Source: Acidimicrobiia bacterium (GTDB lineage Bacteria > Actinomycetota > Acidimicrobiia > Spongiisociales > ZC4RG35). Taken from it: a stretch of 64,000 bases of DNA. The notes under the pieces are model-generated. The model worked only from the letters and a program-made list of their open reading frames with translations, was not told where the DNA came from and searched no databases. Numbering within the stretch: position 1 is the first letter of the stretch; every line of letters begins with the position of its first letter. The DNA is taken from contig CBDCGI010000001.1 of NCBI GenBank assembly GCA_965216725.1, positions 36,595 to 100,594 on the forward strand. The letters are read 5' to 3'. This document shows positions 4,318 through 28,413 of this stretch, one piece after another. The translations under genes were made by a program, and so were the position numbers.

Positions 4318-5729
4318 TGGTGCTGGGGGTGCTGACAGGATTCATCGATGAGCTTCGGGCAGCCGGAGTCCCCGTGTCCATGGTCGAGGCGATCGACTCC
4401 ATGGAGGCCGTTGAAGTCATCGACCTCGGCGATAGGACCGAGCTGCGAGAGACGCTGCGGTCGACTCTCGTGAAGAGTCTCAGGCACGAGCGCGCCTTCG
4501 ACACCGCTTTCGACGTCTACTTCTCGACGATTCCGCCTCCAACGGAAGCCGCGGACCCAGCCGATGATGAGCTCGGCGCCGAGACCGGTGGTGGCGAGGA
4601 CTTCGATCTGGACAGGCTGGTGGCAGACCTCGCCCGCGCCCTCGAAGACATGGACCTCGATGAGCTTCGGCGGCTGGCTCGGGCGGCGGTCGACGAGCTG
4701 GCGGGAATGGAGCCCGGGCGACCCGTGGGCGGGACTTACTACCTCTATCGGACTTTGAGGCGGCTTGACCTGGCGAGTCTCGAGCAAGCGCTTCTAGAGG
4801 CCCTGGGCGAACAGGACGACCTATCGAACCTCGAGCGAAGACTCCTGGAAGAGGAAGTGAAAGGCCGTATTAAGGAGTTGCGAGAGGAGATCCAGGATGA
4901 GATCCGGCGGCGGCTTGTCGCTGACCGCGGGCGGGACGCGGTGGCTCGAACCTTGAGGCGGCCACTACTCGAGGACGTGGATCTGATGCACGCCACGGCA
5001 CTGGATCTGCAGGAGATGGAAGCTGCCATCGGGCCTCTAACTCGGAAGCTGGCGGCGAGACTGGCGAGAAGGCGGAAGAAGCGCACCGGCCGGCTCGACT
5101 TTCGGAAGACGGTGCGCCGGTCTTTGGCGACCGGCGGCGTCCCCGTCGAGCCTCAGTTCCGTCATCCGAGACCACATCGACCAGAGGTATGGCTCCTGTG
5201 CGATATCAGCGGGTCCATGGCGACGTTCAGCCGCTTCACCCTTCAGTTCACCCACGCCATGGCTACTCAGTTCTCGAGGCTTCGCTCCTTTGCATTTGTG
5301 GACACCGTGGACGAGGTCACCGGCTACTTCGGTGCGGGGGTCGACTTCGCAACCGCTCTGCGGCGGGTCATGACCGAAGCCGAGGTGGTATGGATGGACG
5401 GGCACTCCGATTACGGCAACTCACTGCAAACCTTTCGCAACGACTTCGAGCGGCAGCTGACACCGCGGACCACGGTCATAATCACAGGAGATGCCCGGAA
5501 CAACTATCGGCCTTCGCGGGCGCCCATCCTGGGCGAAATCGCCCAGCAAGCGCGTGCTGTCGTATGGCTGAATCCTGAACCGATTGCCTATTGGGACACC
5601 GGCGACTCGGCCATGGGCGAATACGCTCCTTTTTGCACCTCGGTTCACGAGGTGAGAACTCTTCGACAGCTCGAGGCTTTCGTCGAGGAACTGGCCTTGC
5701 CAGGTCGCTCGACCTATGCGAATCCCTAA
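4317..5729 (+). CDS. VWA-domain CoxE-like protein
   Basis: MIDAS-like DISGSM, TGDARNN, WLNPEP; GTG at 4317 overlaps the ATPase stop. Confidence 0.88.
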   Translation: MVLGVLTGFIDELRAAGVPVSMVEAIDSMEAVEVIDLGDRTELRETLRSTLVKSLRHERAFDTAFDVYFSTIPPPTEAADPADDELGAETGGGEDFDLDRLVADLARALEDMDLDELRRLARAAVDELAGMEPGRPVGGTYYLYRTLRRLDLASLEQALLEALGEQDDLSNLERRLLEEEVKGRIKELREEIQDEIRRRLVADRGRDAVARTLRRPLLEDVDLMHATALDLQEMEAAIGPLTRKLAARLARRRKKRTGRLDFRKTVRRSLATGGVPVEPQFRHPRPHRPEVWLLCDISGSMATFSRFTLQFTHAMATQFSRLRSFAFVDTVDEVTGYFGAGVDFATALRRVMTEAEVVWMDGHSDYGNSLQTFRNDFERQLTPRTTVIITGDARNNYRPSRAPILGEIAQQARAVVWLNPEPIAYWDTGDSAMGEYAPFCTSVHEVRTLRQLEAFVEELALPGRSTYANP

Positions 5730-5754
5730 ACCTGACCACTCAGAGTGCCGATAG
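5727..5754 (+). promoter_or_regulatory. Putative sigma28/SigD/WhiG-type promoter
   Basis: TAAA (5727-5730) - 16 nt - GCCGATAG (5747-5754), upstream of the response regulator. Confidence 0.5.
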
Positions 5755-5801
5755 CAGCGCGTAGCAAACCCGTGCGGGTCGAAGCGAGCAGAGGAAGCTG
5801 A

Positions 5802-6167
5802 ATGGGATCTCGGATTCTCGTAGTGGAGGACTCAGCCGTGATCAGACGGCTGATAGAAGTGTGTCTCCGTGCGGCCGACCTAGAGATCATCACCCGCGAT
5901 GATGGCCGGAACGGCCTCACCGCAGTCAGCACCGAATCGCCCGATCTGGTGGTGCTCGACATCGGTCTCCCGGGGATGGATGGCTGGGAAGTCCTCGATC
6001 GCATCCGCACCGACGAGACGACCAGCACGATACCGGTTGTTGTGCTGACCGCCCACGCCGAGGAGGAGTCGAGGCGCAGGGCCAATGAGGGCGGCGCAGA
6101 CGCTTTCGTCACGAAGCCATTCCAGCCCAACGACTTTCGCAGCACAGTCCTCTCCCTCCTCGAATGA
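5802..6167 (+). CDS. Single-domain (CheY-like) response regulator
   Basis: ILVVED, phospho-acceptor DLVVLDIGLPGMDG, LTA, FVTKPF; no output domain. Confidence 0.9.
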   Translation: MGSRILVVEDSAVIRRLIEVCLRAADLEIITRDDGRNGLTAVSTESPDLVVLDIGLPGMDGWEVLDRIRTDETTSTIPVVVLTAHAEEESRRRANEGGADAFVTKPFQPNDFRSTVLSLLE

Positions 6168-19929: not shown

Positions 19930-20142
19930 CTATCCCGGCGACGGGATATCGGGCAAGAAGAAGGCCCCTCCGGGTGAATCCCCAGGACCACTTCCGTCGA
20001 GCTCATATCCGGCCGCGGCCCAATCCGAGACTCCTCCTGCATAGCGCCGAACGTCGTTGTAGCCCGCCTCCTTGAGCCAGCGGTAGGCGTATTGACTGGC
20101 CACACAGGCGGGGTCGGTGCAATAGACCACGATTTCGTCGTC
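19930..20142 (-). pseudogene. Rhodanese-domain gene, 3' half (interrupted by IS)
   Basis: DDEIVVYCTDPACVAS...GYNDVRRYAGGVSDW; rejoins the 5' half in frame when the IS and one TSD copy are removed. Confidence 0.9.
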
Positions 20143-20154
20143 GGTAATTATCCC

Positions 20155-20183
20155 TTGACTGTAGAAGCGTTTTCCTATACAGT
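20155..20183 (+). promoter_or_regulatory. Transposase promoter (leaderless); -35 lies inside the left TIR
   Basis: TTGACT-17 nt-TACAGT, with ATG 6 nt downstream. Confidence 0.6.
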
Positions 20184-20189
20184 GAGGGT

Positions 20190-21128
20190 ATGCCTCCCGC
20201 TGACAGGAAGAACCCCCAAAGAGCCAAATCGTCTGATTCACAGTATTCGCTGATGGAGTTCATGCGGGACTTCCCCGACGACGACACCTGCTTGGAGTGG
20301 TTGTGGAACACCCGCCACGCCATTGACGGGGATAAGGCGTACTGCCCCAAATGTGAAGACAAGACCACGTTCAAGAAGTACTCGACTTCTCAGCAGCGTC
20401 AGTCGTGGACATGCACCAAATGCGGCCACCATTTGCATCCGACCGCGGGGACGATCTTCCACAAGTCCTCAACATCACTCCATCTCTGGTTCTACGCCAT
20501 GTATCTCATGTCGAGTACACGCTGCGGTATCTCGGCCAAACAACTAGAGCGAGAACTAGGCGTCACATACAAGACCGCATGGCGCATCTTCCATCTGATC
20601 CGGAATGAACTGATGGACCAGGACGACGACCAATTCACAGGAGAGGTCGAAGCCGACGAAACATACGTCGGTGGCAAGCCCCGCGGCGGCAAGGGCAACC
20701 CAGGCCGTCCCGGTGCATCAAGTAAGAAGGTTCCCGTATTCGGAATCGTGGAACGCGGAGGGAAGGTCACCGCCATGACCGTTCCCAACGTCACCGCAGG
20801 AACCCTCCTAGGGCAAATCGAGAAGAAGGTTCTCCCCGAAACGATGGTCTACACCGACGAATACCCCTCCTACGGCCGGCTGTCGGATCGTGGCTTCCGC
20901 CATGAGCGGATACGTCATAAGGAAGGCGTCTACGTGAGTGGAGAAGTACACACCAACACGATTGAGGGCTTCTGGTCGCTGTTCAAGAACGGCTTGCGCG
21001 GTGTCTACCACTCAGTCTCAGCCAAGCATCTACAGGGCTATCTGAATGAGTATGTGTGGCGGTACAACCACCGCGACGACGACGCTGCCATGTTCTTGAA
21101 CATGATCCTCAGAGCAGCGAAGGCGTGA
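20190..21128 (+). CDS. IS1595-family DDE transposase
   Basis: Zn ribbon CPKC...CTKC, HTH (ISAKQLERELGVTYKTAW), EADETY, YTDE, HTNTIEGFW, YLNEYVWRYNHR. Confidence 0.95.
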   Translation: MPPADRKNPQRAKSSDSQYSLMEFMRDFPDDDTCLEWLWNTRHAIDGDKAYCPKCEDKTTFKKYSTSQQRQSWTCTKCGHHLHPTAGTIFHKSSTSLHLWFYAMYLMSSTRCGISAKQLERELGVTYKTAWRIFHLIRNELMDQDDDQFTGEVEADETYVGGKPRGGKGNPGRPGASSKKVPVFGIVERGGKVTAMTVPNVTAGTLLGQIEKKVLPETMVYTDEYPSYGRLSDRGFRHERIRHKEGVYVSGEVHTNTIEGFWSLFKNGLRGVYHSVSAKHLQGYLNEYVWRYNHRDDDAAMFLNMILRAAKA

Positions 21129-21324
21129 GTTTGCGAGCAAGTTTGTGGTCGCGAGCTACACAGCTTCAGTTGCGTGTTATATAATGCGATAACAACAAGG
21201 TCACATAACGCGAGAGCGTGAGTGAGCACCGACAGCTGGCAAGCCGTACTGTAAGAATGAAATCGAGCTTGTCTCGCCCAAAGGTAACGATGGGTGAATG
21301 TGGCTACAGCGGTGATGCTTAGAA

Positions 21325-21356
21325 AGAGAAGGGCAAGGGTTTCCTTGCCCTTCTCT
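21325..21356 (-). terminator. Strong hairpin terminator immediately 3' of the cargo tRNA
   Basis: AGAGAAGGGCAAGG-GTTT-CCTTGCCCTTCTCT, a 14-bp perfect stem. Confidence 0.75.
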
Positions 21357-21361
21357 CATTG

Positions 21362-21449
21362 CGGAGCGTGTGGGATTCGAACCCGACGGGACCTGTAAGA
21401 GTCCAAGCGATTTTAAGTCGCCCGCCTTAGACCACTCAGCCAACGCTCC
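21362..21449 (-). tRNA. Atypical tRNA: serine-type body with UAA (Leu) anticodon
   Basis: GGAGCGT TG GCTGAGTGGTCTAAGGC G GGCGA CTTAAAA TCGCT T GGACT CTTACA GGTCC C GT(C)GGG TTCGAAT CCCAC ACGCTCC G; anticodon TAA at 21415-21413; G73; long variable arm; one bulged C in the T-stem. Confidence 0.88.
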
Positions 21450-21455
21450 ATCGCA

Positions 21456-21596
21456 TCACTCTTCCTCAGCCTGGTCTGACGTGGCGATCTTCTCGAAATC
21501 AGTCATGATCTGCGACTTGATCGGCACAGGGATCTCTACCGGGTCGCCCGTCTTGGGCTGCGTCTTCTGAGTGTTTTCGTCCTGTGTCTGATTCAC
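21456..21596 (-). CDS. 46-aa micro-ORF (not in the ORF track), probably leaderless and cotranscribed with the tRNA
   Basis: GTG...TGA encoding MNQTQDENTQKTQPKTGDPVEIPVPIKSQIMTDFEKIATSDQAEEE; TAGGCT -10-like box 7 nt upstream; stop 6 nt before the tRNA 5' end. Confidence 0.55.
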   Translation of the reverse strand: MNQTQDENTQKTQPKTGDPVEIPVPIKSQIMTDFEKIATSDQAEEE

Positions 21597-21739
21597 GTCG
21601 ATCAGCCTATCGGTCGATGATGTCTGTACACTGTTCGATGTGAGGGCCGGGGGATCATCCCGACCCTCGACACCGGTTTAACGCCCTACCGCCGCCTGGA
21701 GCTACCAAGGTTCTTCTGACGACGGGGCTCAGTCACTGC

Positions 21740-22426
21740 TCACGACGAAACCTCCTGCTTCGGGACACCTAGAACCCGTTCGATACGATCCAACAATTCG
21801 GGATCGGGTTTCCCGTTGGATTCCTCAGCCAGGCCCATCAACAGATCTAGATACCGCTCCTTTGCCGATGACATTGCTGGCGCAAACTGTGGTTGTGGTG
21901 TCGTCTTGGGCTTGGACTTCTCAGGGTTCTCAGCCTTTGGCCGAGGCGCCGATCCAATAGGGGTCTTGGACATACCTCGAGGTTTGTTTGGGATCTCATC
22001 GATGAAGCCCGCTGCGCGAGCAAGGTGTAGGAACAGACGAACCATCTTTTGACGCTGGCCCTCAGGTGTGTAGGTCCGAAAAGCATCCTCGATGGTGTCG
22101 AGGTCGTCGGTTGGCGAAATGAAATTGAGAACCGGCTTATATGCTTCTTGGAACCACTCCGCGAGCGTCGCTTGTAGTTGGTCGGAGCGCTCCTCCTTGA
22201 TCTTCACCAGTGTTGGCGTTGCTCTTTGGGTGTCGGGGTCCACCAGGTCCAACTGTTCCAAAGCGCGGAGCACACGACGAGCGTAGGACTCGCCTATGGC
22301 AGGAATCCGACCAATGTAATCCTGTTCAACGGGGTCGGGAATGCCACGCTCTCGAACGTGCTGTATGAACGCCATGACTCCTGAGCCAGGTGCGTATGGG
22401 GCTGGTCCTTTGTCGGGTATCGGCAT
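21740..22426 (-). CDS. DUF5343-like protein (IS passenger)
   Basis: PYAP...ARRVLRALEQLDLVD...T......L...F.EAY......AF...KMVRLFLHLARAAG pattern resembles DUF5343 (from memory); RBS AAAGGA. Confidence 0.7.
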   Translation of the reverse strand: MPIPDKGPAPYAPGSGVMAFIQHVRERGIPDPVEQDYIGRIPAIGESYARRVLRALEQLDLVDPDTQRATPTLVKIKEERSDQLQATLAEWFQEAYKPVLNFISPTDDLDTIEDAFRTYTPEGQRQKMVRLFLHLARAAGFIDEIPNKPRGMSKTPIGSAPRPKAENPEKSKPKTTPQPQFAPAMSSAKERYLDLLMGLAEESNGKPDPELLDRIERVLGVPKQEVSS

Positions 22427-22440
22427 GGTCTTGTCCTTTA

Positions 22441-22509
22441 GGTTTAGTACTTACAACGATGTAGTTCGGAAACTTTAGACCACTATCCGAACACGGTCAA
22501 CCCTAAACC
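22441..22509 (-). promoter_or_regulatory. Sigma70-type promoter of the DUF5343-like gene with an operator-like palindrome
   Basis: Minus-strand TTGACC (22500-22495)-17 nt-TAAAGT (22477-22472); inverted repeats GTTCGGA (22464-22470)/TCCGAAC (22486-22492) and GGTTTAG/CTAAACC. Confidence 0.6.
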
Positions 22510-22575
22510 GTTCGCGCCTCGTACGCCGTTCCAAGATTTCCGGAGTTCGCCCGAGAAGATGGGTAGAAAACCACT

Positions 22576-22770
22576 ATGGCAACCACAACACCGACGCTCA
22601 TGGAGCGCGCTAATGGTCTCGGTTGGTACGCATCCACACCGAGAGCACACCCTCTCCGATTTGCTGTCTATGGGGCAACCAAGCAACAGGCCATAGAGCG
22701 GTTTCGAGAGCGCCTGCTCTACTGGGAGTCCATCGGAACGGACCGGCCCGTCAAGCAACCCTCAGACTAG
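22576..22770 (+). CDS. 64-aa hypothetical protein resembling a HicB N-terminal domain (IS passenger)
   Basis: GWYASTP......VYGATKQQAIERFRE resembles the HicB-type G-Y-A-x-x-P...G-x-T-x-E-E-A pattern; stop abuts the right TIR. Confidence 0.45.
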   Translation: MATTTPTLMERANGLGWYASTPRAHPLRFAVYGATKQQAIERFRERLLYWESIGTDRPVKQPSD

Positions 22771-22795
22771 CTTATACAGAGAAGGTATACTTACC

Positions 22796-22974
22796 TCGTC
22801 GTCCATCTGGAGGTTCTCTCCGGCTTCTTCCACCGTGTTGAAGTGCAAGGAGCCCGGAATATGGGCGACTCTGAACCCCCACTCATGCATGGCCATGACC
22901 AGCTTGAAGTCGTCGCCTCGGTCGATCTTGGCCTTGAGTTCATCTCGGTCGATAGTCTCGATCTCATAATCCAT
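22796..22974 (-). pseudogene. Rhodanese-domain gene, 5' half (interrupted by IS)
   Basis: MDYEIETIDRDELKAKID...AHIPGSL...QMDD; continues in frame at 20134. Confidence 0.9.
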
Positions 22975-23047
22975 GGGCAAACAATAGGAGACACGACGTC
23001 GTGCGGTCAGGAGCCAAACTCCAGGGTCGGATGCGTAGGTTGAGCTG

Positions 23048-23371
23048 ATGGACAGACTTCGCCGCTTGGTGTTCCAGCGCTCCATGGCACGCCGTGTTTG
23101 TGCCCATCTCGACCAGGTCGCTGTTATCGAGGGCAAAGAGCCGGTTTGCCCGGAATGCATCAAGGAGGGCAGCGAGTGGGTCCACGTTCGGATGTGCATG
23201 GTCTGCGGCAATCCCGCCTGTTGCGACAGCTCGAAGCGACAGCACGCCCGTCAGCACTTTGAGGACACCGGTCATGCCCTCATGCGCTCTATCGAGCCTG
23301 CGGAGACATGGGCGTGGTGCTACGTAGACAAGGCCTATCTCACCGAGGACGAATACGTTCCGGCCAGCTGA
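23048..23371 (+). CDS. UBP-type zinc finger protein
   Basis: CAHL, CPEC, WVHVRMCMVCG..ACCDSS..HARQH, WAWCYVD. Confidence 0.85.
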   Translation: MDRLRRLVFQRSMARRVCAHLDQVAVIEGKEPVCPECIKEGSEWVHVRMCMVCGNPACCDSSKRQHARQHFEDTGHALMRSIEPAETWAWCYVDKAYLTEDEYVPAS

Positions 23372-24332: not shown

Positions 24333-24441
24333 CGCCGGGACCCCGAGGCGCATGGCGCTTCGCTTATTTGTTAGGTTCGCATTTGAAAAACCCATCGGTA
24401 TCGACAACTCATATGCCAGATCGGCATCAAGGGAGAGCAAC

Positions 24442-27400
24442 ATGAAACGCCAACTCGAGCGACTGACGATCCTGATGTCAAGCATCGCGCTCATCGTCCC
24501 GCTGGTTGGTGTTGCTCCTGTCGTGTCGGCGACTACTAACGCGCCTGAGCAGATTGACACCGACTCGTCCGTGGGCGACGCATCAGTCGCGGCCTCAGAA
24601 CCTGGAATTGCTGACGGCTCTCTGGCCACCGTACCGGGGGATCTCCCGTCTCAAGCTGCGATGGATGCTGCGGCAGCCAACGATTTGATCGAAGAGGCTG
24701 CCTTGGCCGCAGCTCCGATCCCCATTGGCGACCCGATCGTTCCTCAGAGCGACCCGGTGATACTCGACATCGAGGATGGCAGTGAATCGGATCCGCTGGC
24801 GAATACCGCCCCGCAGGCATTTCCGAAAGCGTCGAAGACGGCGTCGCCAATCTATCGTGCCCCGGTGTCGGGGACCTTCGCGAGTTTCAGCATGTCTGAG
24901 GTCTCGCCGGCGGGATTAGACGTCGCCGCGCTGCCGGAGAGCGTCCAGATCGAGATCGACACAGCCGCGCAGTGGCAGTTGGTCGAGTTCGACACATCGC
25001 TTTTTGCTGACGCGCTGGAAGCATCCAATGTCAGCCTGGACCTGTTCCATGGAATCACTCTGGACATGGATACCTCGGTGGCGCCCAGCCCGGGGGCCCT
25101 CGACACAACGCTATACGTCGCGGGAGTTGGGGAGGATTCCGATGCCGCCGTTATCACCATCTCGGGTGACGAGGTAATCGGCCAGTTCTGGTCCGATGGC
25201 AAGCAATTCGGTCTCCAGCCGGTGGGCGCAGGTCAACACGCGGTTTTTGAGATAGCGCGCGATTTTGACAACAGCACCGAGCCCGACGCGGTGCCCGGTC
25301 CGTCGAACGGGCCCAGTGGTCTCACAGTGCAAGAGAGCGGCGGGGAAGCCGACATCATCGGGTTGCCCGCTGTCGAGGTCATGGTCGCCTATGACGATGA
25401 GGCGTTCGCCTTCTATGGCAACGATATCGACACGGTGCGGGCTAACGCTGCAGCCATGGTCAACCTCACCAACGCCATCTATCGGAATACCGATCAGCAG
25501 CAGCACATGAACCTGACCCACATCTACGCCACCAACACCACGCCGAACACCAACGACATCTTCACCTACCGCAACCAGCTCGCATCCAAGTCCGATGGCA
25601 ATTTCGACGGGGTCCATGTATCGCGCGATATTGGAGGCTCTGACATCATCGTCTTGCTGTCGGATAGGTTTGTCAACGCCCAAGGATTCTGTGGAGTCGC
25701 CTTTTTCCCGGTCGGGGCAAGCCCAGCGGAGGACAACGCATACAACGTGACCGAAGCCAGCTGCGCTCTGTTCGGCCTCACTTTTCCCCACGAGTTGGGT
25801 CACAACCAGTGTGCCGGACACGACCTCGACACGCCCAATGCGTGCGGCTATACCGACGGCACAGGGCATGTGGATGCGGCCGCGGGCAAGCGGACGGTGA
25901 TGGCCCGCAACTCCAACACATGTTGTGAAAGGCAGCCGGTTTACTCCAATCCCGGCCACGAATACCTGGGCTGGGAGACCGGAGTAACTGGCGTCTCTGA
26001 TAATGCCGGTGTCCTGGAGATCGAGGATCTCGCAGGCGTCTCAGGGGGTGTCGCCAACTACCGAGTGGGCAACGGGGTTGTAACGTCTGTCGCCGGGATC
26101 GATGGCAAGAGTTGCATCTACGGCTCACTCGAAGCCGCCTTTGCCAATGCCCCAGCGGGTTCGACGATCTATGTCGCCCCCGGCATCCACGTGGGACAGG
26201 ACCCAGTGTTCAACTTCAACATCACCTGGGATCTCGACGTTGTACAGGGCACGCCACAGTGCGAGCCCACGGGGAGCCCGCAGCCGGCGACCAACGTCGT
26301 CATTCAGCCCGCCCCGGGATCTGCAAATGACGGGGTCATCGAGATCAGGAACGGAGCCAACGTTCGGTTCGAGAGAATCACCATCGAGAATGGGATCAGC
26401 GCCGAAGGCAACATCGAACTGGAGAACGGTCCGGGCACGACTCTGATCCTTGACGGGGCCATAGTCCGCAACGGCAACAACCCGGCCAACGGTGGGGGAG
26501 TTCGAGTATTGGCAGACAACAGCCTCACCATGGTCAACAACGGCCAGATCACTAGTAATACCGCGGTGCTGGGCGGCGGTGTCTACGTCGACGGTGGCAC
26601 GTTCACCATCGCCGATGTGGACGATGTCGAAGACAACAACGCCACGCATGGTGGCGGTATCTATGCAACGAATGGTTCCCAAGTCCGGGTTGAGAACGAC
26701 GGCGATGTCAATAACAACACCGCGACCGGAGACGGTGGCGGGGTCTATCTGACTGGCGACTCGGATCTCGAGGTGACTGGCTCGAGCAGCCATATCGGAT
26801 TCGGTGGCCAAGGCAATTCCGCCAACCGAGGTGGCGGAGTCTTCATCGCGCAAGGTTCGGTCGGCTCGAAAGTAACCATAGGCGAGCTGGGGGCCGTTGA
26901 GGCGAACACCGCCAGCTTCGGAGCCGGGGTCTATCTGCTCAACGGTGAGGTCGAAATCAACGACGATGGCGCGATCATCGACAATGTTGGGGGCAATGGC
27001 GGAGGCATTCTCGCCGTCAACGACCCAGATACCTTCACGGTGGTAGACCTCAATCGTGGGGCGCTAGTGAGCGGGAATACAGGAGGTTTTGGTGCAGGGC
27101 TCTTCATGAGCACAAACTCCGAGCTGCGCGTCGACGGTGGCACCACCGGGGGAGTATTCAATCCGGTCGTCATATCGGGCAATGCCTCAACCAGCAACGG
27201 GGGCGGCCTCTACATGGACAGCGCTAAGCCGGCGGTGTTGGACACGGTCCACTTCCACTCCAACAGTGCGGTCAACGGCGGTGCGATCAATCTCTCGACA
27301 GGAATGGATGTCACCGTGGACGATCTGAGCAACTGCGGCCCGGACAACCTTGCTTTCGAGCAGTATTGCTCTGAGTTCCGCGACAACTCGGCGGACTTCG

Positions 27401-28413
27401 GGGGTGCTGTCTACGTGAACGGAGCGACTTTCATTGCCGATCGAACCGCCTTCTTTGCTAACACCGCCACCACGGGGGCCCAAGCCGTGCAGGTGGTGGG
27501 AGCGTCAACGGTTGAACTGACTGCGATGCTGGCCGTGGGGCATGATTCGCTGGGAACCGGCGATGGTTCATTCACCGCAGCGGACACATCGCAGTTGACG
27601 ATCAAGGCGGCCACCTCTGCCGACGGAGCGGGTGCATGGCTCGACTTCGACGGGTCGGCTACGGGTGATCTGAAACGCATCATCGCCGACACTGCAGTGC
27701 TCACGCCAGAGCAGTCCACAGGGACCTGCAATCTGAATGCGCTTCCGGGCGGCTCGGGGCTCCCGAATGCGGTCACCGCGGAAGCCGGATTCGTTACAAC
27801 TTCCCATTCCGATTACGTGCCCAATGCCGCTTCGCCAGCGGTTGACAACTGCAAGAGGAAGGGCGTCCCTCGAGACATACTTGGTCGTACCGTCAAGAAC
27901 GGCGACGGCATCGACTCAAGCAAGGAATATGACTTTGGGGCGTTCGAGGCCAGTACCGGGCTTGGTCACTCCTGCGCAGGCAAGCCGGCGACAATCGTCG
28001 GCGACGACGGAGCCAACGTCATAGAGGGCACCGCTGGGCCCGACGTCATTGTCGCCCTTGGTGGAGCCGACGACGTTGACGCCAAAGGCGGCAAAGACAC
28101 GATCTGTCTTGGCAGCGGGTCAGACACTGCCGACGGTGGCTCGTCGGGCGACACCATCAAAGGTGGTTCGGGAGCCGACACCATTGTCGGTGGCAGCGGC
28201 CACGACACCATCGACGGAAACGGCGGCAGCGACGACATCCGTGGTGATGACGGCAACGACGAGGTGAACGGAAACAAAGGCGCTGACATAGTTCGCGGAG
28301 GCGACGGAGACGACCTGATTTCGGGTGGGCCGGGCTCGCCGGACATTTGTCGTGGTGGTTCGGGGACCGACCAGGCCACCGGAGGGTGCGAAGTAAAGAC
28401 CGGGATTCCTTAA
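24442..28413 (+). CDS. Large secreted multidomain protein: reprolysin-like (M12) metallopeptidase, beta-helix repeats and RTX-like Ca-binding tail
   Basis: Signal peptide; HELGHNQCAGH zinc motif with downstream TVMA Met-turn; many N-x-A-x-x-GGG(V/I)Y repeats; DFGAFE; GGxGxDxI nonapeptides. Confidence 0.8.
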   Translation: MKRQLERLTILMSSIALIVPLVGVAPVVSATTNAPEQIDTDSSVGDASVAASEPGIADGSLATVPGDLPSQAAMDAAAANDLIEEAALAAAPIPIGDPIVPQSDPVILDIEDGSESDPLANTAPQAFPKASKTASPIYRAPVSGTFASFSMSEVSPAGLDVAALPESVQIEIDTAAQWQLVEFDTSLFADALEASNVSLDLFHGITLDMDTSVAPSPGALDTTLYVAGVGEDSDAAVITISGDEVIGQFWSDGKQFGLQPVGAGQHAVFEIARDFDNSTEPDAVPGPSNGPSGLTVQESGGEADIIGLPAVEVMVAYDDEAFAFYGNDIDTVRANAAAMVNLTNAIYRNTDQQQHMNLTHIYATNTTPNTNDIFTYRNQLASKSDGNFDGVHVSRDIGGSDIIVLLSDRFVNAQGFCGVAFFPVGASPAEDNAYNVTEASCALFGLTFPHELGHNQCAGHDLDTPNACGYTDGTGHVDAAAGKRTVMARNSNTCCERQPVYSNPGHEYLGWETGVTGVSDNAGVLEIEDLAGVSGGVANYRVGNGVVTSVAGIDGKSCIYGSLEAAFANAPAGSTIYVAPGIHVGQDPVFNFNITWDLDVVQGTPQCEPTGSPQPATNVVIQPAPGSANDGVIEIRNGANVRFERITIENGISAEGNIELENGPGTTLILDGAIVRNGNNPANGGGVRVLADNSLTMVNNGQITSNTAVLGGGVYVDGGTFTIADVDDVEDNNATHGGGIYATNGSQVRVENDGDVNNNTATGDGGGVYLTGDSDLEVTGSSSHIGFGGQGNSANRGGGVFIAQGSVGSKVTIGELGAVEANTASFGAGVYLLNGEVEINDDGAIIDNVGGNGGGILAVNDPDTFTVVDLNRGALVSGNTGGFGAGLFMSTNSELRVDGGTTGGVFNPVVISGNASTSNGGGLYMDSAKPAVLDTVHFHSNSAVNGGAINLSTGMDVTVDDLSNCGPDNLAFEQYCSEFRDNSADFGGAVYVNGATFIADRTAFFANTATTGAQAVQVVGASTVELTAMLAVGHDSLGTGDGSFTAADTSQLTIKAATSADGAGAWLDFDGSATGDLKRIIADTAVLTPEQSTGTCNLNALPGGSGLPNAVTAEAGFVTTSHSDYVPNAASPAVDNCKRKGVPRDILGRTVKNGDGIDSSKEYDFGAFEASTGLGHSCAGKPATIVGDDGANVIEGTAGPDVIVALGGADDVDAKGGKDTICLGSGSDTADGGSSGDTIKGGSGADTIVGGSGHDTIDGNGGSDDIRGDDGNDEVNGNKGADIVRGGDGDDLISGGPGSPDICRGGSGTDQATGGCEVKTGIP

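Follow-up and report, generated by a model that had tools for sequence, protein, structure and literature searches.

Organization of the transposon and its insertion site

We analyzed a tRNA gene with a serine-type body and a leucine (UAA) anticodon in a 64,000-nt stretch of an Acidimicrobiia bacterium (assembly GCA_965216725.1, contig CBDCGI010000001.1, positions 36,595 to 100,594), hereafter the window. The tRNA is cargo of a 2,653-bp transposon of the IS1595 family (20143..22795) and is referred to below as the transposon tRNA. The element opens with the left repeat and its promoter-like site, followed by the transposase gene on the plus strand; on the minus strand the order is a promoter-like site, a gene for a DUF5343 protein, an open reading frame (ORF) of 46 amino acids (aa), the tRNA and a hairpin. 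Genomes (G), loci (L), contigs (C) and sequencing runs (X) used for comparison are numbered. The features at the locus are as follows:

19930..23211, minus strand: rhodanese-like host gene split by the insertion into halves 19930-20142 and 22796-23211 (Pfam Rhodanese on 19930-20241; alignment with G003)
20135..20142: left copy of the target-site duplication, 8 bp, TCGTCGTC (junction comparison and the empty-site joint in run X2)
20143..20169, plus strand: left terminal inverted repeat, GGTAATTATCCCTTGACTGT... (junctions; sibling element of G970)
20155-20183: promoter-like site facing the transposase gene, within and after the left repeat
20190..21128, plus strand: IS1595-family DDE transposase, 312 aa (PF12762, NF033547)
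21325..21356, minus strand: terminator-like hairpin, perfect 14-bp stem and 4-nt loop, then TTTCT (sequence; also 3' of the G949 tRNA)
21362..21449, minus strand: class II tRNA, anticodon UAA, serine-type body (ARAGORN, Rfam, sequence reading, covariance models)
21456..21596, minus strand: 46-aa ORF, MNQTQ...IMTDFEKIATSDQAEEE, stop codon 6 nt before the tRNA (conserved in the G970 sibling element)
21740..22426, minus strand: DUF5343 protein, 228 aa (Pfam PF17278, 1.1e-13)
22472..22500, minus strand: promoter-like site TTGACC-17-TAAAGT upstream of the DUF5343 gene (consensus match only)
22769..22795, minus strand: right terminal inverted repeat, GGTAAGTATACCTTCTCTGT... (junctions and repeat comparison)
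22796..22803: right copy of the target-site duplication, 8 bp, TCGTCGTC (junction comparison and the empty-site joint in run X2)

The transposase matched PF12762 with 145.1 bits (2.3e-42) and NF033547 of NCBIfam with 212.8 bits, and is single-copy, with one PF12762 match in its own genome. The terminal inverted repeats are imperfect; both start with GGTAA (at 20143 and 22795), 16 of their first 20 positions match, and the same terminal repeat occurs at both ends of the G970 sibling element. Among the IS1595 elements in ISfinder some carry passenger genes, and an 8-bp target duplication is usual. The transposon resembles them in its DDE_Tnp_IS1595 transposase with an N-terminal zinc ribbon, its short inverted repeats, its 8-bp duplication and the presence of genes between the repeats, and differs from them in its passenger set of DUF5343, the 46-aa ORF and a tRNA.

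In the congener G003, matches to window positions 19997-20143 and 22792-22973 adjoin directly, and the stretch between them is therefore an insertion into the rhodanese-like gene. In run X2, one contig connects 20134 with 22796 and shares 8 letters with both sides; it represents the empty site, so that the insertion is polymorphic in the sampled population, pointing to recent transposition. The first-pass annotation had called the tRNA transposon-borne, and the transposase, the repeats, the duplication and the two empty sites all bear this out.

Logan contigs of four runs (X1-X4; two samples, one study) were compared with the window over 20100-22850. The contigs of X1-X3 cover the whole tRNA at a depth of 2-4 with no differing letter, and those of X4 cover only 21423-21449 of it. 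As far as these contigs show, the anticodon is not the assembly slip that the first-pass annotation had considered. They rule out a contig-level slip but do not confirm the sequence independently, since the assembly probably came from this study itself. Among the sequencing runs listed as containing this DNA, none was of RNA. Contigs of X1-X3 at higher depth (10-17) share only 20143-20167, 21051-21095 and 22742-22764 with the window. As this leaves only the left end of the element and two short internal segments in common, the same community seems to include further elements whose ends are related.

Structure of the transposon tRNA

ARAGORN called the tRNA at 21361-21449 on the minus strand with the anticodon taa, as one of two tRNAs in the window, and RF00005 (Rfam) covered 21362-21449 with 43.7 bits (gathering score 29), compared with 68.9 bits for the neighbouring tRNA-Ala. 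Read on the minus strand, the acceptor stem GGAGCGU/ACGCUCC has 7 bp, among them G1-C72, G2-C71 and A3-U70; an eighth pair would set U8 opposite C. The dinucleotide UG separates it from the D-arm, GCU-GAGUGGUCUAA-GGC, which contains C11-G24 and G15 and is followed by G26. The 3-bp D-stem closes an 11-nt loop, GAGU-GG-UCUAA, with 4 nt 5' of the GG and 5 nt 3' of it. The anticodon arm is GGCGA-CUUAAAA-UCGCU. In the variable arm, U-GGACU-CUUACA-GGUCC, a 5-bp stem is preceded by a single unpaired base and joined directly to C48, a layout identical to that of the host serine tRNAs, and C48 forms the Levitt pair with G15. The T-arm, GU(C)GGG-UUCGAAU-CCCAC, has a stem of 5 bp and one bulged base, an extra C that Infernal aligned as an insertion and that lies between pairs 50-64 and 51-63; ARAGORN draws only three regular pairs here. 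The discriminator is G73, followed by CAA instead of CCA. The universal residues U8, A14, G18G19, U33 and GUUCGAAUC are all intact.

Every cloverleaf detail listed in the first-pass annotation (the acceptor pairs, G73, G15:C48, the variable arm, the extra C of the T-stem and CAA) was thus present when the sequence was read, as was the strong terminator reported behind the tRNA, a perfect 14-bp hairpin that begins 5 nt downstream. A simple terminator scan left this hairpin (21325-21356) unlisted because of its short T run. The caveat that CAA in place of CCA could mean a decaying RNA carries little weight: the host tRNAs Leu-tag, Leu-gag, Ser-cga and Ser-gga also have no encoded CCA, and its absence from the transposon tRNA is therefore no sign of decay. 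The minimum-free-energy fold gave no clean cloverleaf (z-score -1.4); in-silico cloverleaf folding often fails for unmodified tRNA sequences.

Serine and leucine identity

We compared the tRNA with the serine and leucine tRNAs of its host. All five host serine tRNAs start with GGAG, carry G73, G15 and C48, and place 4 nt before the GG of the D-loop and 5 after it. Those for UGA and GCU show the D-loop GAGCGGUCGAA, and the D-arm is longer in the CGA and GGA isoacceptors. The four other leucine tRNAs of the host (tag, cag, gag and caa) have A73, A15 with U48, and the D-loop GAAYUGGNAGA, with 5 nt before the GG and 4 after it. In broader alignments, all 32 serine tRNAs (A3) share GGAG...G73 and all 17 leucine tRNAs (A4) have A73. 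At each point compared, the transposon tRNA agrees with the serine pattern of the host, and it lacks A73, A15:U48 and the leucine D-loop layout. Its anticodon is the leucine anticodon UAA and not a serine one (NGA or GCU). It also lacks the 8-bp acceptor stem, the 6-bp D-stem with 4-nt loop and the UCA anticodon of a tRNA-Sec, and the host has a separate tRNA-Sec on contig C7.

In E. coli, leucine identity depends on A73, A15-U48, G18G19 and A20a, and serine identity is set by the variable arm, independent of the anticodon; C2-G71 of tRNA-Leu is an antideterminant against seryl-tRNA synthetase (SerRS) in E. coli, and G73 of tRNA-Ser is one against leucyl-tRNA synthetase (LeuRS) in E. coli and H. 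volcanii (PMC9976931). The body of the transposon tRNA has the identity elements of bacterial serine tRNAs and not those of leucine tRNAs, in agreement with the serine identity assigned to it in the first-pass annotation.

The same question was put to two covariance models, R1 trained on 32 serine tRNAs from the host and 11 relatives (4 of the 32 rows come from the unpublished genome G027) and R2 on 17 tRNA-Leu. Both models are broad (effective sequence number ~1.2), so that the margin counts and the absolute score does not, and by this measure the transposon tRNA scored 72.9 bits on R1 and 42.8 bits on R2. Among independent serine tRNAs, that of L038 scored 80.0 on R1 and 47.9 on R2, the phage tRNA of L092 scored 71.0 and 40.9, and the two phage tRNAs of L095 scored 54.8 and 49.8, and 46.2 and 36.3. 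Six independent phage leucine tRNAs reached 53.0 bits or less on R1 and 47.4-82.1 bits on R2, where the leucine tRNAs of the training set scored 88-100 bits. All ten independent controls were placed correctly (serine, 4/4 higher on R1; phage leucine, 6/6 higher on R2), and the 30-bit margin of serine over leucine in the transposon tRNA equals that of a genuine tRNA-Ser. The isotype comparison that the first-pass annotation had called for came out in favour of serine. Its homologue in G949 scored 73.8 bits on R1 and 21.8 on R2.

The transposon tRNA is 73% identical to the host tRNA-Ser(UGA), and is therefore no misassembled copy of it. Its best matches in 40 relatives (a tally that is the only one to include the unpublished genome G038) are 72-78% identical and were tRNA-Ser(UGA) at 11/11 loci fetched. 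One plasmid record and eight Rhizobium phage records match at 79-80%, the phage ones being annotated as tRNA-Ser. Over this range of 73-80% identity, it shares with canonical tRNA-Ser(UGA) the acceptor, discriminator, D-arm, Levitt pair, long variable arm and T-loop, and differs in its UAA anticodon, its extra T-stem C and its location in a transposon rather than in a chromosomal cluster of serine tRNAs. The first-pass annotation had implied a tRNA-Ser(UGA) one mutation away. This did not hold, as the anticodon loop CUUAAAA is as close to the loop of the host tRNA-Leu(CAA), CUCAAAA, as to a Ser(UGA) loop, and leucine anticodons are common to a set of transposon tRNAs, described below.

Related modules in other genomes

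Altogether 19 DUF5343 loci were examined, including the one in the window. They came from samples of the phylum, class and order (401 genomes each), from 251 genomes around G298, and from a metagenome scan with alignment A2 that gave three loci; two of them (G923 and G1093) are weak matches, and one without a tRNA (G952) is from an unpublished genome. None of the conclusions rests on the unpublished genomes (G027, G038 and G952). Relatives of DUF5343 are rare, being found in 6/401, 5/401, 6/401 and 3/251 of the sampled genomes. At four of the 19 loci a class II tRNA lies directly downstream in the same orientation:

Window tRNA: anticodon UAA, position 73 G, bulged C in the T-stem
G949 tRNA: anticodon CAA, position 73 A, no bulge, same terminator hairpin
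G298 tRNA: anticodon UAG, position 73 G, no bulge
L039 tRNA (metagenome): anticodon UAG, position 73 G, no bulge

These four well-formed tRNAs all have a 7-nt anticodon loop, U33 and a leucine anticodon, and three of the four have G73. Their position 37 is that of the genuine leucine tRNAs of the host, A37 with UAA or CAA and G37 with UAG. The homologues thus carry neither random anticodons nor broken stems, outcomes that the first-pass annotation had held against its own proposal. It had also looked to conservation of UAA and of the T-stem bulge. What is conserved is the leucine anticodon; UAA itself varies, and the bulge is private to this copy. Its emphasis on G73 holds for this tRNA and not for the lineage, since the closest homologue, that of G949, has A73.

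The tRNAs of G298 and L039 share the acceptor GGAGGGC/GCCCUCC and G73, and form a second lineage that MAFFT could not align with the first. For both, the tRNA-Sec model gave the highest score, which stayed under the gathering threshold of that model. In viral contigs, their acceptor and T-arm sequence had 11 matches, at 8 of which ARAGORN called a tRNA-Ser. A fifth locus, G134, holds a degenerate Sec-like sequence with an 8-bp acceptor stem, a 6-7-bp D-stem and no workable 7-nt anticodon loop; it reached 32.5 bits on the tRNA-Sec model and was not called by ARAGORN.

In G298 a convergent IS1595 transposase of 45% identity stands next to the module, in L039 the C-terminal 36 aa of such a convergent transposase are visible before the contig ends, and in G134 the inverted-repeat motif of the window element recurs together with a transposase fragment. 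The sibling element of G970 (L051:4352-7480, contig C25) has the same repeats and the small ORF, with a transposase 73% and a DUF5343 protein 67% identical to those in the window; its tRNA slot is occupied by an NYN ORF of 223 aa (5456-6127, minus strand; PF01936, 28.7 bits) with its own terminator hairpin. The G949 module (L052:5946-6896, contig C139) lies between purL and a 679-aa ORF of unknown function, and its small ORF is a remnant; no transposase was found within 12 kb and no inverted repeat was recognisable, and the module may be a stranded or domesticated copy. Ordinary tRNAs occur at two further loci, a convergent tRNA-Ser(UGA) at L038 and a tRNA-Leu(GAG) upstream of DUF5343 in G444. 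At L101, L102 and L050 no such tRNA was found near DUF5343, within about 1.5 kb.

Wider pattern scans gave no further member. The pattern GAGYGGTYNAAGGN7CTTAAAA had 13 matches in 185,579 species (a set from which the host genome was possibly excluded), none with an ARAGORN tRNA, against an estimate of ~17 chance matches; the only tRNA called at these 13 loci is an unrelated tRNA-Pro ~740 nt from the match. The scan thus held no second serine-type tRNA with this exact D-loop and the CUUAAAA loop. In viral contigs, a pattern specific for this tRNA and its G949 homologue had no match, and 43 pattern matches included no DUF5343 relative.

The two tRNAs of the first lineage allowed covariation to be counted. 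This was done pairwise by script for the window and G949 tRNAs, with the bulged base set aside, because MAFFT could not align both lineages of the four module tRNAs. The two sequences are identical at 73/87 positions (84%), and 10 of the 14 substitutions fall in paired columns. Of 25 base pairs, 18 are unchanged, three are changed on both sides and still pair (5-68, 49-65 and one variable-arm pair), three are changed on one side and still pair, and one is broken, A31-U39 being A.C in G949. Because of the three compensatory changes, we conclude that the tRNA fold is a structured RNA kept by selection.

Decoding of UUA in the host

The host genome (27 contigs, 2.54 Mb, ~61% G+C) has 45 tRNAs according to ARAGORN. 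In 2,111 long ORFs we counted 851 TTA codons among 756,278, or 1.13 per 1000, compared with 3.8 for CTA and 14.8 for TTG; TTA is the rarest leucine codon here, in line with what the first-pass annotation had stated for high-GC Actinobacteria. Among the 27 contigs, ARAGORN found no other tRNA with a UAA anticodon, and tRNA-Thr(GGT), tRNA-Val(UAC) and one CAU tRNA were also not found; the tRNA-Tyr is truncated by the end of contig C25. A canonical tRNA-Leu(UAA) with A73 occurs in 9/40 relatives by a strict pattern and in 3/3 congeners by BLAST. In the congeners it lies between blocks that here end at position 1 of C9 and of C22. The host tRNA-Leu(UAA) most likely sits in an assembly gap, as its congener location falls between two contig ends here, and its absence is not shown. 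The ~12 kb between the C9-like and C22-like blocks of the congeners are mostly not in this assembly. The idea that the transposon tRNA is the only UUA decoder of the genome was set aside as uninformative, given the other missing tRNAs and the gap at the congener locus.

Reassignment of the TTA codon was rejected. When TTA codons in 49 host ORFs were compared with DNA of relatives, 10/12 faced leucine and none faced serine, in what is a small sample.

The congener tRNA-Leu(UAA) genes (L064:1501-1586 in G003, L065:1501-1586 in G002 and L066:1503-1587 in G001) have a D-loop two bases shorter, GCGAAAUGYAGACGC, without the G18G19 that other relatives keep and that contributes to leucine identity in E. 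coli. The shortened D-loop is probably functional, since it is conserved across three species.

Partner genes and transcript layout

An AlphaFold2 model of the DUF5343 protein had a mean predicted local distance difference test score of 76.8, with values above 88 for residues 11-140. Residues 11-81 retrieved winged-helix DNA-binding domains in a VIA structural search (Z 5-7), the best match being the FtsK gamma domain (Z 6.8) and the next ones TubR and proteins of the MarR type, all with middling scores. The N-terminal part of the model resembles a winged-helix DNA-binding fold, a likeness that speaks for a common fold and not for a function. Foldseek against the PDB gave nothing at E below 0.25, and PADLOC and NCBIfam gave no match. 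A synthetase or RNA enzyme is unsupported by these searches, in which only the winged-helix matches of VIA stood out. DUF5343 may act as a regulator or a transposition accessory. The 46-aa ORF matched no family.

The promoter-like site scan found none directly upstream of the tRNA, and the site at 22472-22500, judged by its consensus match, is a candidate start of a transcript of DUF5343, the small ORF and the tRNA. A 91-aa ORF at 22483-22758 is probably no gene, as it has no homologue in related loci and contains the promoter-like site just named.

We considered whether the tRNA serves the genes of its own element, and rejected this. The transposase, DUF5343 and the 46-aa ORF have no TTA in ~590 codons, where ~0.7 would be expected, a count that is not significant and uninformative either way.

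Proposed function of the transposon tRNA

We propose, on the basis of the sequence comparisons, that the transposon tRNA is most likely a serine-accepting UUA decoder, a mobile Leu-to-Ser missense tRNA, and we give this proposal an even chance of being right. The tRNA would be cotranscribed with DUF5343 and the 46-aa ORF from the promoter near the right end in a transcript ending at the hairpin, excised by RNase P and completed at its 3' end by the CCA-adding enzyme. Charging with serine would be expected, because SerRS ignores the anticodon and the body carries the serine identity set. The charged tRNA would then compete with the host tRNA-Leu(UAA) and put serine at UUA codons, perhaps also at UUG. 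A toxin-like or addiction role, defence, and adaptive mistranslation are possible benefits, as would be the anti-phage or regulatory role that the first-pass annotation put forward.

Several observations weigh against this proposal. The Rfam score of the tRNA is modest beside that of the neighbouring tRNA-Ala. The T-stem region around pairs 50-64 and 51-63 is contacted by elongation factor Tu; because the bulged C lies there, this copy, the only one to have it, may be poorly delivered to the ribosome. The leucine discriminator A73 of the closest homologue shows that identity is not uniform in the lineage. Since the two lineages of module tRNAs cannot be aligned with each other, and the tRNA-Sec model is the best-scoring one for those of G298 and L039, the shared leucine anticodons may have more than one origin, or an exchange of cargo may have taken place. 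Fourteen of the 19 DUF5343 loci have no such tRNA within about 1.5 kb, and the closest sibling, that of G970, holds the NYN ORF in its place. Decoding of UUG would harm the DUF5343 protein of the element itself, because its five TTG codons fall on invariant or near-invariant leucine positions (56, 59, 196, 211 and 212). Many allo-tRNAs (tRNAs with serine identity and non-serine anticodons) associated with transposons or toxin-antitoxin genes are inactive in translation (Mukai et al., PMC5389517). In favour of the proposal, the T-stem bulge has a precedent in A51a of a functional selC* tRNA-Cys, where it is dispensable (PMC7609411).

The best surviving alternative is that the tRNA-shaped RNA is not used for decoding. 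The element could keep it as an RNase P site that gives the DUF5343 message a defined and stable 3' end, as a regulator, or as the toxic or decoy RNA of a toxin-antitoxin-like module. The layout fits this: the tRNA sits 6 nt beyond the end of the small ORF, lacks its own promoter-like site and has a strong hairpin behind it. Also in agreement are the NYN RNase gene in the same slot of the sibling element, the G134 member without a workable anticodon loop and the T-stem bulge of this copy. Most allo-tRNA(UAU) near transposon or toxin-antitoxin genes were unused in translation, and two killed E. coli (PMC5389517). Against it, the four well-formed members keep the 7-nt loop, U33 and a leucine anticodon while the anticodon itself varies among UAA, CAA and UAG, and their position 37 fits the genuine host leucine tRNAs of the same codon box, which would be needless for a pure processing signal. 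On this evidence a non-decoding RNA is fairly unlikely.

The inserted C of the T-stem could also mean that this copy is decaying, a disabled member of an otherwise functional family of transposon tRNAs. The bulge is missing in the 84%-identical G949 tRNA and in those of G298 and L039, ARAGORN draws an irregular T-stem, and the computed fold is not a clean cloverleaf, which is common among unmodified tRNAs. However, the other stems are intact, 9 of the 10 paired bases that differ from G949 (6 of 7 changed pairs) still pair, the transposon is itself intact and recently mobile, and selC* tRNA-Cys tolerates a bulge at almost this position (PMC7609411). We regard decay as improbable.

A tRNA that accepts leucine would make the transposon a supplier of decoders for the leucine codons that are rare in GC-rich hosts (UUA, UUG and CUA), and phages and plasmids often supply decoders of rare codons. 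All anticodons of the family are leucine ones for rarer codons (in the host, TTA and CTA at 1.13 and 3.8 per 1000), A73 is found in the closest homologue, the anticodon loops are the same as in genuine leucine tRNAs of the host, and the assembly holds no other UAA tRNA. The body of the tRNA speaks against leucine: it lacks A15-U48 and the leucine D-loop layout, G73 counts as an antideterminant for LeuRS in both E. coli and H. volcanii (PMC9976931), and its 42.8 bits on R2 compare with 88-100 for the training and 47-82 for the independent leucine tRNAs. The missing host tRNA-Leu(UAA) is accounted for by the assembly gap, the gene being present in 3/3 congeners. Leucine acceptance is, in our judgement, quite improbable.

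An assembly or sequencing artefact, whether through a miscalled base in the anticodon of a true tRNA-Ser(UGA) or through a chimeric contig, is very improbable: the Logan depth is low and the runs share a single study, from which the assembly probably derives as well, but contigs of three runs cover the tRNA with no differences, its identity to the host tRNA-Ser(UGA) is only 73%, and a homologue with a leucine anticodon exists in another genus.

If the transposon tRNA is indeed a serine-accepting UUA decoder, a broader role may be considered. A group of IS1595 elements in Actinomycetota would spread DUF5343 together with a serine-charged tRNA for rare leucine codons as a recoding weapon or addiction device, which would corrupt the UUA-, UUG- and CUA-rich proteins of lower-GC phages and plasmids and spare the GC-rich host, with DUF5343 controlling expression and the slot open to swapping, as for the NYN nuclease. 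We think this scenario unlikely. More speculatively, the tRNA slot might hold effectors aimed at RNA or translation, as an NYN RNase gene occupies exactly this slot in the sibling element.

Relation to known systems

The closest known relatives in kind are the allo-tRNAs, which combine serine identity with non-serine anticodons, including the leucine anticodons for UUA, UUG, CUA and CUG (PMC5389517), and one of which inserted serine at UUA in E. coli (PMC5389517, PMC7609411). The transposon tRNA shares with them the serine identity elements and the non-serine anticodon; some allo-tRNAs lie near transposon-related or toxin-antitoxin genes, and the members from G298, L039 and G134 score best on the tRNA-Sec model, as in the first discovery of allo-tRNAs. 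It differs from them in its acceptor branch, which is 7/5 with a bulged base, whereas allo-tRNAs have a 12-bp branch of 8/4 or 9/3. In the accessible parts of these sources, allo-tRNAs are reported from Clostridia, Proteobacteria and Acidobacteria and not from Actinomycetota (PMC7609411), and no link of allo-tRNAs to IS1595 or DUF5343 is reported (PMC5389517).

The tRNA-ProX/ProRSx pairs of Streptomyces and Kitasatospora are also tRNAs whose body and anticodon specify different amino acids, and they mistranslate in E. coli; unlike the transposon tRNA, they have a proline body, an A34 anticodon (for Ala, Asn or Thr) and a dedicated synthetase (PMC11415595). Here the partner is a small winged-helix-like protein rather than a synthetase, and the module lies inside a transposon. 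The likeness of the transposon tRNA to tRNA-ProX is one of principle only.

In Streptomyces, bldA is a genuine chromosomal tRNA-Leu(UAA) regulator that decodes the rarest codon. The two are alike in reading the rarest codon of a GC-rich actinobacterium, where changes in supply or meaning touch few genes, and unlike in that the tRNA described here has a serine body and is mobile.

The literature searched, which left most subscription journals and supplements outside, contained no tRNA as an IS1595 passenger, no 7/5 serine-type tRNA with a leucine anticodon in bacteria, and no mention of DUF5343. Natural tRNAs in which body and anticodon disagree are rare, the allo-tRNAs and tRNA-ProX being the examples. 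What is new here is the mismatch in an ordinary 7/5 cloverleaf, a clear vehicle in the form of an intact and recently mobile transposon with defined ends, and a recurring partner gene, DUF5343. A single 2.7-kb element makes the purpose of mistranslating tRNAs open to experiment. Together with its relatives that lack the bulge or have A73, the tRNA is a natural series for serine and leucine identity, and the module tRNAs may serve as scaffolds for missense or suppressor tRNAs.

Additional observations

Four phage contigs of IMG/VR from one metagenome (L103:1489-1575, L106:1453-1539, L114:1453-1539 and L115:1453-1539) carry a serine-type tRNA with a GGAUAGG acceptor, G73, an encoded CCA and the serine D-loop. 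Its anticodon loop is the 6-nt CUUAAA, which ARAGORN labels '?(Stop|Leu)(ta)', and it scored 60.6 bits on the serine model. These tRNAs stand in clusters with tRNA-Ala and tRNA-Thr, and in three of the four also with tRNA-Gly. They may be another serine-bodied UUA reader, or frameshift or suppressor tRNAs.

Just downstream of the transposon, on the plus strand (24352-28413), lies a 1,353-aa ORF with an M12B/reprolysin-like metallopeptidase domain and C-terminal RTX calcium-binding repeats.

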